The translations under genes were made by a program, and so were the position numbers. A stretch of DNA of 64,000 bases from assembly GCA_000182565.2 (NCBI GenBank), contig KQ257462.1; one strand, given 5' to 3'. Positions within the stretch are counted from its first letter, which is position 1, and each line of letters opens with the position of its first letter. Positions 59,417 to 64,000 of the stretch are shown piece after piece. The notes under the pieces were generated by a model that did no database searches, was not told the origin of the DNA, and saw only the letters and a list, made by a program, of their open reading frames with translations. This stretch comes from Spizellomyces punctatus DAOM BR117. Taxonomy: Eukaryota.

Positions 59417-62400
59417 ATGCGTTTCTTTTCTCTAACCCAGTGCACATGCGCCCTCCTTTTGGCCATCACTTTGCTGCCATACCTCAGCTGTGCCCAAGAA
59501 TTCCGCTCCATTGATGGAACAGGCAATAATGCAGACAACAAGGCGTTTGGAAGTGTCAACTCAACATTTGCGAGAACCTTGGGGGGGTATAATGCCAATG
59601 CTTTGACGTCGGGTTTGCCGGACGCCCGCGCCATTTCTAATGCCCTCGCGGGTGTGGTTGCGCCGATAGTGAGTCCGAGAAATATTACAGAGTTGGTAAG
59701 GTCTGATTGATCTCAAAGATATCGTCCATAAATATGATGCTCAATGTGTTCCGTTTAGTTTACATATTGGGGAGAATTCATGGCGACTGGTACGTCGTAA
59801 TGTAAAAGGAGAACCATTCATGTATAGACACTTGAGAAAGAACTTTTGTATGCTCTTAGATCTCTCGCATATCATCCGATCATCAAAACCAACCAACGCG
59901 ACTTTCACTTTACCTGCCAATGGACCATTGCCTCCTGCACCCGCAAACGAATCATTTACGTTTGGTGCAACTGACAGTACCAACAGCGCTCCGCCGGACC
60001 AAATCAACCATGCAACAGCATTCCTGGATGCTTCCAACATTTACGGGACCGATCCTGCCGTGCTGGCCAGCCTCCGGGCTCCTGGTGGCAAACTGGCGCT
60101 TCGGTCTGATCGACTACCGCTTGTCGTAAACGGCACCAACGACATCCGCACGCAGACGGTTCGAATTAATGGGGGCCTCCCATTGGACGTTTTTGGCTTT
60201 GGCCTAGTGAATGGGAATACAAGTCCCATGTTGCAGGTAACATTGGCTGCAATCAGTATCATGAAAGACCAAGGTTGCTAAAGAGTAATTCACTACTAGT
60301 GCCTGTACATTATTTTTATGCGTGAGCATAACCGTTACGTGGACGAGCTTGTACGAAACGGAACAAAGGCGAATGACGAACAATTATTTCAGCTGGGACG
60401 CCAGCATGTCATTGCGCTTATTCAACACATTTCGTACTACGAATACATTCCGGTGCTGTTTGGGGCAAATCTGTTGACGAACCCGGCTTATAACCGCGCT
60501 TTGGATCCCGCGATGGAAGCACTTTTCTCTACCGTCGCATTTCGCTGTATGTGATTGTCAGAGTTGGCTGTTTAATTTAAAGTTTGACAATTAACAACTC
60601 CGTTTTCGTACAGACGGGCACATGGAAGTCACATCTACGCAGATCATGCTCAAAGATGGCAAGCCAACTGAATTCAATCTGGTCGACGTTTTCTACAATA
60701 TCCAACCTGTGCTCCAGCACGGCATCTTCCCATTTTTCGCTGGTACGCTGTGTTTCCCTTGTGACTGTACTTGAATTCGGATTCACACCACAATCCCTAA
60801 GGCATGACCAAACGAAGCCAGCTTATTCCAAAGCTGTACGTTGTCCCCGAACTCCGAAATGTACTCTTTGGCAATCGACCGATGGACCTATTCGCCATTG
60901 ACATTCAACGTTCCCGTGAGTTTGGTTCGCCGTTATATAACGATGCTCGAAGAGCTCTCGGTCTCGCCCCTGCAGTAGACTTTACAGATGTCACCAAGAA
61001 CCAAGCTATTGCATCAACCCTACGAACGCTGTATGCAGGCGATATCAATAAATTGGATGCTATCGTGGGCGGACTTGCGGAGGATCACTCCCCGTCAAAC
61101 AATATTGGCGACTTGTTCACAAAGATTTTGATCTATCAATTTACAAAGACCAGAGATGGGGACCGATTTTGGTTTGAGAATGACGGTGTGTTGACTAAAG
61201 AGCACTTGGACGAAGTTCGGCATACGTATTTCCGGTAAGTAATTTCATGGAGTGTTTGCAAGTACGCACAGCGTGGTGCTTATGATGTGATCCAATCCAT
61301 TTTAGTGATGTGATCGCTCGGAACGTTCCAGAGATACCCCAAGAGACTGCCCAAAAAATGCTTCCACGCAATCTATTTCAAATCACAAATGATGCGAGTC
61401 TGGATGGCGGTATCCCGAACGGATTTGCGTATTCAAAGTCATATCTTGACAATAGATATCGGTTGTCATGGAACATTAACGACCGGGGCGGAAAGTCTGA
61501 AACTATTCGCGGATTGTTGGAGTGCGCCTCTGAAGGCTGGTGTGGCCTAGCGTTTGGGGAGGACATGACGGTCGCTGGTGAGTTCTTGATGCCAGTCGAA
61601 AACGCTCCGCGGAGATACATGTCGTAACAATTTCACCGCAGAATTCATGATTGTTCGTCCGGCGTCGAATGGGTCGCTCATTTTGGAGGAGCGTGATAGT
61701 GGTGGAGGTTTTGTCCGACCGGTTAGTGTTGCAGGCCAAACTTCCATTTTCTATCACATTTTGACCCTTTTGTCGTTAGGTCATGACGACTCGCCCACCC
61801 CTTGTGCAAGTCATTTCCAGCAGTTTCACAGGAGGCATCATGACACTTGAATTCCAAAGGGCGGTTCGTCGCGGTCAAGCTAGTTACAGTGAAGGAGGTG
61901 CTCTGCCAATTCTAGCCGCCTATTCTCCTCAAAAGGCCGTCGCCACGAACAACGACGAGTGGTTCCAGTTTCATCAAACGAACCGACAACGGATTCGATT
62001 AAACTTTGCAACAGGGGAGTCGACTGTCTCGGACAATGTAACACCCAGGCGAAGTGTGCATGGTATAGGAATGGCCCTTATTTGGGGCGTTGTCTTCCCC
62101 TTTGGAGTGTTTTGGTCCAGATATTTTAGGTATGTGCATGTTTGCATACCTGCTTCGCTGTTACGTTTATTCATTTAAAAATATACAGGCATCTTCCTGG
62201 GTGGATGCTCGTTCACATCCTACTTCAAAGCATTGGTTGCATCGCCGTCATTTTCTTGGCAGCTATTCCGCTTATCGATCCGCAAAACATGGGGATTACG
62301 ACCAATGCACCGCATTCGTACATTGGGATTATCCTCCTCGTTTTAGTCATCATTCAGTTGTTATTGGGAGGATTCAATCGACAGGTGAGCGCCAAGGCTA

Positions 62401-64000
62401 ATCAGATCTCGTATAGCAGGTAACGAGCATGTTTACTTATCATTCTCTTGCAGCGTCTTCGATGGGAGAAGCTGCGTGATGCCTCTCACTACATTAGGGT
62501 AGCCCACCATTGGGTCGGGCGTGGTATGATTTTGCTGGGACTTGCAAATATCGGATTTGGGCTTCGGCGCATCTATCCCAACAAAGACCCGTCGGATGGT
62601 ATCTGGTTGGTATACTATGTGGTCTTGGTATTTTGGGCTGCTCTCTTTGCCGCTCTCGAGGTAGGTAGCGCCTTTGTACCTATTAAATCACAACCACGGT
62701 CTCATGGTTCGCTCTATCCTCTACAGGTGTTCTTCCGCTTCAAGGTCCGCGCAACCCGCCCTGATGGACCGCAAATGCCTGTGCCTATTATGCAGCTCGA
62801 TGAGAATGGAAAAGACGGCACTCTTACTGTGATTCCCACTGTAACCCCCGTCATGGCCGCCATGTCTGCGCCGGTGCCGATGAAAAGGGACCCAAAAGAT
62901 CTCGAAAAGCAGCCACTCTTGAGAAGTTTCACGTGGAAGGATATTGACGACGCCGTCATTGGAGGGTATGCTACTGATATTTTTTCCCAGAATTTAGATG
63001 GATGTAGTCACTAACGACTTGCGCATTATTTTCGCAGCGAGCATTTGGTAGTCGGAAATGGACGCTGGGTATATGATATCCGACCCTGGCTCGCCCATCA
63101 CCCTGGTGGCCGACTAATTTTGGATACTGTGAATGGAACCGACATTACGATTGATTTCTTTAATGAATCAGACTTTGATGGTAACCTGGGACTGCAAGCA
63201 ACAAGCGGTAGATCAAACGACCAAGAGAAAGAATTTAGGGTGCTTCCCAATGCATTGGTACGGAACGGTACACCAAACGGGGATCATGAAGCATATGACG
63301 AAAGTGACTCGGTCATCAAAGTGAATCCTTTATTGCACAAACCATTTACGACATCTGGACCTATCGTTCACCATGAACTTTCTGTGGAAACCTTGAGAAC
63401 GAACAGCGAGGAAAAATCTGAAGAAGAGAGCGAACATTGGATTCCGCCGCCGGATATCAAAGCAGATGAATGGAAGGCAGTTCGAAGAGCTCGATGGACG
63501 CATGCCCACAGCAAATACGCCGCTGAAAAGCTCATTGGATTCATTATCGGCGAGATTTCATGCCCAAAAGTTCCATCAAAGTTTTATGATTCGGCGGATG
63601 GGTCACGATCTTTTGATCCATACGAGTACCGTCGATATGCAATGGTCCATAAACAGCTAGTGACTTCCAAATCAGCCAAACGTGCAGTTTACCGTGTCAA
63701 ATTCGCGCTGTTATATCCTTTCCAAGGGTTGCGTGAGAATGAGCCAACAAGTTTTCTTCCGGGGCAGTGCGTAGAAATTGCCGATCGCATCCAAGGACAG
63801 ATTGTCACACGGTTTTATACGCCTGTCTCTGGCAGTCCTAGTTGCTTTGAAGTGTTGATCAAAGTCTATCCGGAAGGATTGATGGGACAGCATATCCACA
63901 AGCGCAAACCAGGCGACCGGCAGCTTAAGGTTCGTGGTCCATTTGCCGAGCCTTTGATCAACCCTCACCCGCCATTGAGAGGATTGCATGCGGGATGCTG
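59417..64000 (+). CDS. Multidomain membrane oxidoreductase: signal peptide + peroxidase-cyclooxygenase-type heme domain + DOMON + cytochrome b561 + cytochrome b5 + FAD-binding (b5-reductase-like) domain; at least 12 exons, runs off the window end
   Basis: Exons ~59417-59695, 59759-59789, 59860-60236, 60300-60546, 60614-60742, 60802-61234, 61306-61577, 61642-61721, 61780-62129, 62189-62384, 62454-62660, 62727-62965 and 63038->64000 join in frame. Motifs: FRSIDGTGNN, TAFLDASNIYG, REHNR, AFRYGH, DIQRSRE, RDGDRFWFEN; GWCGLAFGEDM...QFH; four b561 His; VYDI..WLAHHPGG; RFYTP, KVYPEGLMG, VRGP. Confidence 0.9.

Follow-up and report, generated by a model that had tools for sequence, protein, structure and literature searches.

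A peroxidase-fold domain stripped of its distal catalytic residues on a putative transmembrane b561 electron chain of Spizellomyces punctatus

The classical active peroxidases of the peroxidase-cyclooxygenase superfamily (families 1-3, 5, and 6) carry the distal signature G-Q-x-x-D-H-D, which includes the catalytic histidine (PMC4420034), and the same source describes as obscure what the degenerate peroxidase domain does in DUOX. CYBDOM proteins pass electrons from ascorbate to Fe(III) chelates (PMC10784552). The gene described here comes from the fungus Spizellomyces punctatus DAOM BR117 and lies at the end of a 64,000-nucleotide stretch of contig KQ257462.1 (assembly GCA_000182565.2), referred to below as the window. 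It starts with an ATG at 59417 on the plus strand and encodes, in order, a signal peptide, an animal-type haem peroxidase domain, DOMON, cytochrome b561, cytochrome b5, and a reductase with flavin adenine dinucleotide (FAD)- and NAD(P)H-binding parts that holds an SH3 insert. A search of open-access main texts found no study of this fusion architecture, nor do the accessible parts of PMC3591440 or PMC10629195 describe it.

The peroxidase domain, hereafter the cap, has lost the distal catalytic His and Arg together with both haem-ester residues, keeps the residues that hold haem, and has acquired a glutamate and a histidine that are nearly fixed among its closest relatives. The interpretation given the most weight, although tentatively, is that of a cap that holds haem, is itself non-catalytic, and sits on a reductase resembling CYBDOM. 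What is new here are the clade-wide residue counts, the remodelling at Glu99 and His107, the argument from redox potentials, and the placement of cap-less forms inside cap-bearing ones.

Two samples underlie the counts. Two protein searches and one representative search yielded 12 proteins with the full architecture, SH3 insert included, among them P0001, the database protein of this gene. Besides Spizellomyces, the genera include Phlyctochytrium, Thoreauomyces, Geranomyces (two), Borealophlyctis, Quaeritorhiza, Nowakowskiella, Blastocladiella, and Sorochytrium, all of Chytridiomycota or Blastocladiomycota. Their peroxidase domains form one branch with a support of 99 (quick tree, 55 rows). 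The wider homologue set holds 117 aligned domains out of 147, the 30 weakest, long RTX-repeat matches being left out; 98 of the 117 are non-fusion domains, and 84 of these 98 carry distal His, Arg, and proximal His and make up the "intact" set. Residue registers come from alignment to CyanoPOX 8S6C, DdPoxA 6ERC, LPO, and fox TPO, with the roles of pocket residues taken from PMC5787809 and PMC11776367. The pocket features are as follows.

59759..59789, plus strand: exon 2, distal helix, reading WGEFMATD against WGQxxDHD; splicing into the exon is seen in run X1.
59868..59870, plus strand: His107 (the His of DLSH), in the register of a channel-lining Phe/Leu; 11/12 of the clade against 5/84 intact enzymes.
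60015..60035, plus strand: distal Ca-site motif T156/D160/S162; D160 and S162 in 12/12, T or S at 156 in 12/12.
60201..60221, plus strand: GLVNGNT in place of GDxRxNE, by alignment; N221 (60210-12) is the catalytic Arg site and T224 (60219-21) the ester Glu site.
60543..60621, plus strand: from the propionate Arg, R311, to the proximal ligand of the haem, H314, spanning intron 4; 12/12 in the clade.
60900..60911, plus strand: D388 (proximal H-bond partner, codon 60900-02) and R391 (propionate Arg); 12/12 in the clade.

In the distal helix, E99 (59774-76) occupies the Gln register, A102 (59783-85) that of the ester Asp, and T103 (59786-88) that of the catalytic His; D104, a Ca ligand whose codon is split between 59789 and 59860-61, is kept. 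Looking for the classical distal His and for R-x-x-E returns G-E-F-M-A-T-D and N221-G-N-T224. A preliminary description made from the window alone had read the same Q>E, D>A, and H>T changes, which the alignment bears out; its R>N and E>T changes in GLVNGNT are likewise right, with the motif lying about 3 nt to the right of where it had been placed. The check it proposed, whether the substitutions recur in homologous fusions, comes out positive: in the clade, the distal Arg is kept in 0/12, the distal His in 2/12, and the ester Asp and Glu in 0/12. Since the same losses occur in 11 homologues, they are not due to chance or sequencing error. The catalytic Arg site holds N, A, G, V, or K and the distal His site T, Q, M, L, or H, and this free variation at positions 103 and 221 argues that no replacement catalyst has been selected there. 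The Glu>Thr change also creates an N-glycosylation sequon, N223-T224-S225 (window 60216-60224); because only 7/12 members have it, no role is claimed for it.

An ordinary peroxidase, with its catalytic residues brought back by a different splice or with His107 standing in for them, is very nearly excluded. His107 is indeed conserved, and the transcript data miss intron 2: contigs of run X1, presumed to be RNA, are spliced at introns 1, 4 (60547-60613), and 5, intron 2 falls outside their coverage, and the 37 raw RNA reads of run X10 are too sparse for splice joints. The run X1 contigs joined across introns nevertheless fix the exon 2 frame as far as F100. No GT occurs in exon 2 ahead of the T103 codon. 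Of 10 donor/acceptor pairs that leave the frame open, not one brings a His into the distal register, and a GDxR or RxNE-type motif arises in none of the 42 alternative splices of exon 3. Alternative splicing is therefore ruled out as a rescue of His and Arg, and 11 independent homologue gene models share the loss. The earlier verdict that this is probably not a classical peroxidase stands on the clade-wide loss of distal His and Arg.

The haem-holding part of the domain presents the opposite picture. R311, H314 (codon 60619-21, in an intact AFRYGH, as previously read), D388, R391, D104, D160, and S162 are found in 12/12 clade members, the Ca-site equivalents being those named in PMC11776367. 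The Asp at the proximal Asn position had also been noted there. The residue was read correctly, but Asp stands there in 28/84 intact enzymes and is ruled out as a sign of degeneration. The domain has the fold of the peroxidase-cyclooxygenase superfamily: an AlphaFold model of the ectodomain has a mean predicted local confidence (pLDDT) of 91.6 and a predicted template-modelling score (pTM) of 0.92, and Foldseek matches it to CyanoPOX 8S6C with TMt 0.86, a root-mean-square deviation of 2.9, and E 2.7e-37. Mean pairwise identity within the clade is 0.40 for the peroxidase domain against 0.31 for DOMON and 0.33 for b561, which points to a domain under selection rather than in decay; 48 of its 86 core columns are kept.

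The invariant proximal and Ca-site residues and the intact fold suggest, in line with the preliminary description, that haem b is probably bound non-covalently. A haem-free domain serving structure, docking, or adhesion, as the peroxidase-homology domain of human DUOX may do, would have a precedent (PMC7794343), a docking idea in the literature (PMC6411640), and Ca sites that could be purely structural. This explanation is nonetheless improbable, since H314, R311, R391, and D388 are retained in 12/12 whereas the animal DUOX matches P0110 and P0111 have lost the proximal His.

The distal pocket is remodelled rather than decayed, because Glu99 and His107 are each fixed in 11/12 members. Glu at the distal Gln site is found in none of the 84 intact enzymes, and P0037, the sole clade member without Glu99, also lacks His107. 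Two members retain the distal His, adjoining Glu99. Further clade-specific residues are G222, T224, Q229, Y312, E316, Q361, Y367, and F385. His107 had been put forward as a possible occupant of the distal site. Its conservation fits that idea, but its register does not: it aligns with the Phe of TPO DHDVAF, four residues past the distal His. In the model, the distal helix ends at residue 105, with His107 beyond it and two turns from Glu99. The equivalent position in CyanoPOX falls between two residues contacting a haem propionate (PMC11776367), and in MPO, ligands docked into the distal cavity have Phe99 stacked on them (PMC11284790). From the Phe register and these comparisons, His107 would line the mouth of the cavity rather than substitute for the catalytic His.

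The cap is dispensable for much of the family. In a representative search with the cytosolic exon, most matches lack a peroxidase domain, and of 75 proteins with DOMON, b561, b5, and FAD domains, 54 have no cap. All but one of these, a fragment, make up a single branch of 53 (support 99, FastTree) nested among cap-bearing forms. Of the 54, 43 begin with Met, have a hydrophobic N-terminus, and reach DOMON within 220 residues. The same genome holds four cap-less DOMON-b561-b5-reductase(SH3) genes, L028 C3, L029 C8, L030 C18, and L031 C2, which belong to the 53-member branch; at least three of them have a signal-like peptide shortly ahead of DOMON.

Other fusions show the remaining states of the cap. 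The C12 paralog (L019:1750-7460) has the same fusion and keeps distal Gln/His/Arg and the proximal Asn, with both ester residues absent; its catalytic Arg is read across an inferred GT-AG mini-exon. It offers a natural positive control. Another fusion with intact Gln/His/Arg is P0019. The C5 paralog (L018:2050-5900) joins a disarmed peroxidase domain and DOMON to a seven-helix tail resembling class C G-protein-coupled receptors (GPCRs), with no reductase, and P0015 has the same design. In a second fusion branch without SH3, the distal His site is plugged by F, M, or Y in 5/5 (P0268, P0271, P0280, P0282, and P0285). The simplest order of events would be intact cap, remodelled cap, no cap.

The gene has 14 exons and 13 GT-AG introns of 58-72 nt, its 3' end lies about 700 bp beyond the window end (locus L002), and its translation is identical to P0001 (1480 residues). 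Its domains are laid out as follows.

59417..59494, plus strand: signal peptide, residues 1-26; hydrophobic N-terminus, with the Pfam peroxidase match beginning at residue 29.
59495..61339, plus strand: animal-type haem peroxidase domain, residues 27-510, exons 1-7; PF03098 (An_peroxidase 29-510), E 6.6e-103.
61442..62016, plus strand: DOMON, haem ligands Met586/His681; PF03351, E 6.8e-6, under the curated cut-off.
62044..62735, plus strand: cytochrome b561 membrane domain, His710/742/775/816; PF03188, E 4.9e-4, under the curated cut-off.
62913..63509, plus strand: cytochrome b5-like domain, HPGG His968 and HxH 1102/1104 after a long insert; PF00173.
63615..64000, plus strand: FAD-binding domain with RxYTP at 1205, followed by the first part of the NAD(P)H domain; PF00970 (FAD_binding_6), E 1.1e-8.
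L002, plus strand, past the window end: SH3 insert and CGP motif; SH3_1, E 7.4e-4, under the curated cut-off.

The SH3 domain (L002:4900-5330) interrupts the part of the reductase that binds NAD(P)H and marks this subfamily; it suggests regulation through a proline-rich partner. The cytochrome b5 domain is itself split: some 100 inserted residues separate HPGG from the invariant HxH (window 63180-63500).

The electron chain is preserved throughout the clade: DOMON H681, the four b561 His, the b5 HPGG His and HxH, and the FAD/NAD motifs are invariant in 12/12, and DOMON M586 is present in 10/12 of the clade alignment and 10/10 of a second alignment. Because these residues are invariant or nearly so, and given the CYBDOM parallel, electrons are expected to pass from NAD(P)H as far as the haem of DOMON. 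The potential of a DOMON haem is about +0.1 to +0.2 V. In AIR12, ascorbate reduces the DOMON haem completely (PMC10784552). Among peroxidases, the potential follows the ester count, with MPO at +0.005 V, enzymes with two esters at -0.13 to -0.18 V, and one-ester enzymes at -0.276 V (PMC5787809). The cap pocket has zero ester residues and two nearby carboxylates (proximal Asp, distal Glu), and extrapolation from that series suggests a potential of -0.28 V or lower for an ester-free His-Asp cap haem. Reducing the ferric cap haem from ascorbate-reducible DOMON/b561 haems thus looks uphill, and reducing compounds I and II from the same chain would be downhill. A predicted complex of the cap (27-525) with DOMON (530-698), haem, and Ca scored 0.00 with the alignment unused and speaks neither for nor against contact.

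This bears on the proposal, already raised in the preliminary description, that the cap is a terminal acceptor whose haem the chain reduces to Fe(II) for oxidase, oxygenase, or nitric oxide (NO) chemistry. The fused chain is indeed complete and the proximal site intact, and tight binding of NO by ferrous haem could pull the uphill step. The acceptor chemistry itself is doubtful, given the low predicted potential of the cap haem against a far higher one for DOMON, and given that the chain is kept without a cap in 53 relatives and four paralogs. Moreover, the radical Tyr of cyclooxygenase and alpha-dioxygenase presumably sits three residues before the proximal His, where the cap has R311, not Tyr. 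With Arg there in 12/12, an oxygenase of the alpha-dioxygenase, cyclooxygenase, or linoleate diol synthase type is ruled out. Elsewhere in the genome, a stand-alone peroxidase-cyclooxygenase gene on the minus strand (L017:5800-7600, C8) does have a Tyr three residues before the proximal His (VYRFH) and is alpha-dioxygenase-like.

A stronger competitor, still rather unlikely, is a peroxide reductase fed by the chain, in which Glu99 would replace His and Arg as acid-base catalyst. Either H2O2 or an organic hydroperoxide would enter the widened pocket, and compounds I and II would be reduced by the Met/His haem of DOMON. A single polypeptide of zoosporic fungi would then act as a cell-surface NAD(P)H peroxidase, converging on the working principle of bacterial cytochrome c peroxidase, fed by cytosolic NAD(P)H through five further haem/flavin centres and consuming peroxide, the opposite of DUOX. 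The clade-wide gain of Glu99 and His107 and their joint absence in P0037 fit this scheme, and the one-chain ectodomain model is compatible with a fixed cap-DOMON arrangement. The intact fusions (C12 paralog, P0019) suggest that peroxide chemistry is probably ancestral. It would also be the sole route with downhill electron flow to the cap haem. Compound I formation, however, is normally crippled once distal His and Arg are both gone. In bacterial bCCP, MauG, and BthA, a distal Glu/Gln accompanies a five-coordinate haem of low potential; bCCP has a Met-His donor haem, and an E277Q variant is inactive (PMC6405878). That a distal Glu and a Met-His donor suffice in these dihaem peroxidases, together with downhill reduction of compounds I and II, is what recommends the scheme. 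It is weakened by the placement of His107, past the helix end in the channel-mouth Phe register, by the many relatives that dispense with the cap, by the free variation at positions 103 and 221, and by the receptor fusion that has no electron source.

Free variation at both catalytic positions, a dispensable cap, and a receptor fusion without an electron source are also why the non-catalytic haem cap is preferred. On that reading, the protein would be a self-contained transmembrane reductase that moves electrons from NAD(P)H through FAD, the b5 haem, two b561 haems, and the Met/His DOMON haem to a one-electron acceptor outside, most likely Fe(III) chelates or quinones in the manner of CYBDOM. 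The cap would be an accessory holding haem b without compound I chemistry, its distal cavity rebuilt by Glu99, His107, Thr224, Gln229, and their neighbours for non-covalent haem and a ligand or substrate. It might bind or sense substrate, peroxide, or NO and present or gate it, with no electron turnover of its own, and the capped protein would stand in the middle of a series from intact through remodelled to absent cap. The second fungal branch with its plugged His site also counts in favour. Three points weigh on the other side: the Glu99 gain and its joint loss with His107 could mark a catalytic pair, the distal His persists beside Glu99 in two members, and the order of cap states depends on a FastTree topology without a clade test.

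One genome thus carries one fold on a non-DUOX chain in three states, intact (C12), remodelled (this gene), and absent (four genes), with the GPCR ectodomain (C5) as a fourth use, which provides a ready comparative series for the function of the domain. If Glu99 is catalytic, the cap would represent a new acid-base solution in the superfamily, and early-diverging fungi would have a self-powered sink for peroxide outside the cell; if it is not, the cap would be a well-conserved pseudoenzyme that binds haem, still useful but less of a surprise.

Among known systems, DUOX (family 7 of the superfamily) shares with the fungal protein an extracellular peroxidase fold that lacks the distal His and is joined to a membrane chain of NAD(P)H, FAD, and haem, with the Ca-site residues kept, and its structure 7D3F is the third Foldseek match. 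The parallel drawn in the preliminary description is nevertheless loose. The DUOX core is a NOX/ferric reductase with EF hands, whereas the fungal core is b561, DOMON, and b5, and a Pfam scan of the fungal protein finds no PF01794 and no EF hand. Human DUOX1 lacks the haem-ligand His and holds no haem (PMC7794343); the fungal cap retains its proximal His. The two peroxidase domains fall on separate branches in quick trees of 55 and 32 rows, although a single clade is allowed (p-AU 0.43, 32 rows).

CyanoPOX 8S6C, DdPoxA 6ERC, and LPO/MPO share the fold (TMt 0.85-0.86 for the first two), the proximal His/Arg/Arg, and the Ca site, but their distal Gln/His/Arg triad is complete, one or more of their ester residues remain, and they are not fused to an electron chain. 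Alpha-dioxygenase and cyclooxygenase (family 4) belong to the same superfamily and bind haem non-covalently; they match the cap weakly. The bacterial dihaem enzymes CCP, MauG, and BthA would resemble the cap in working principle only, with a distal Glu near a five-coordinate low-potential haem and a six-coordinate donor haem (PMC6405878); they have an unrelated c-type fold with no homology to the cap, and E99, which occupies the distal Gln register, may lie over the iron as their Glu does.

CYBDOM proteins (Arabidopsis CRR/HYP1, animal SDR2/FRRS1) share the DOMON Met/His pair, the four b561 His, and outward electron transfer (PMC10784552). They are ascorbate-fed and have two domains, to which the fungal protein adds four modules: the peroxidase cap, its own b5 and FAD/NAD(P)H reductase, and the SH3 insert. 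With DOMON and b561 Pfam scores under the cut-offs, the fungal protein is, as judged from its residues, one that contains a CYBDOM core rather than a plain CYBDOM.
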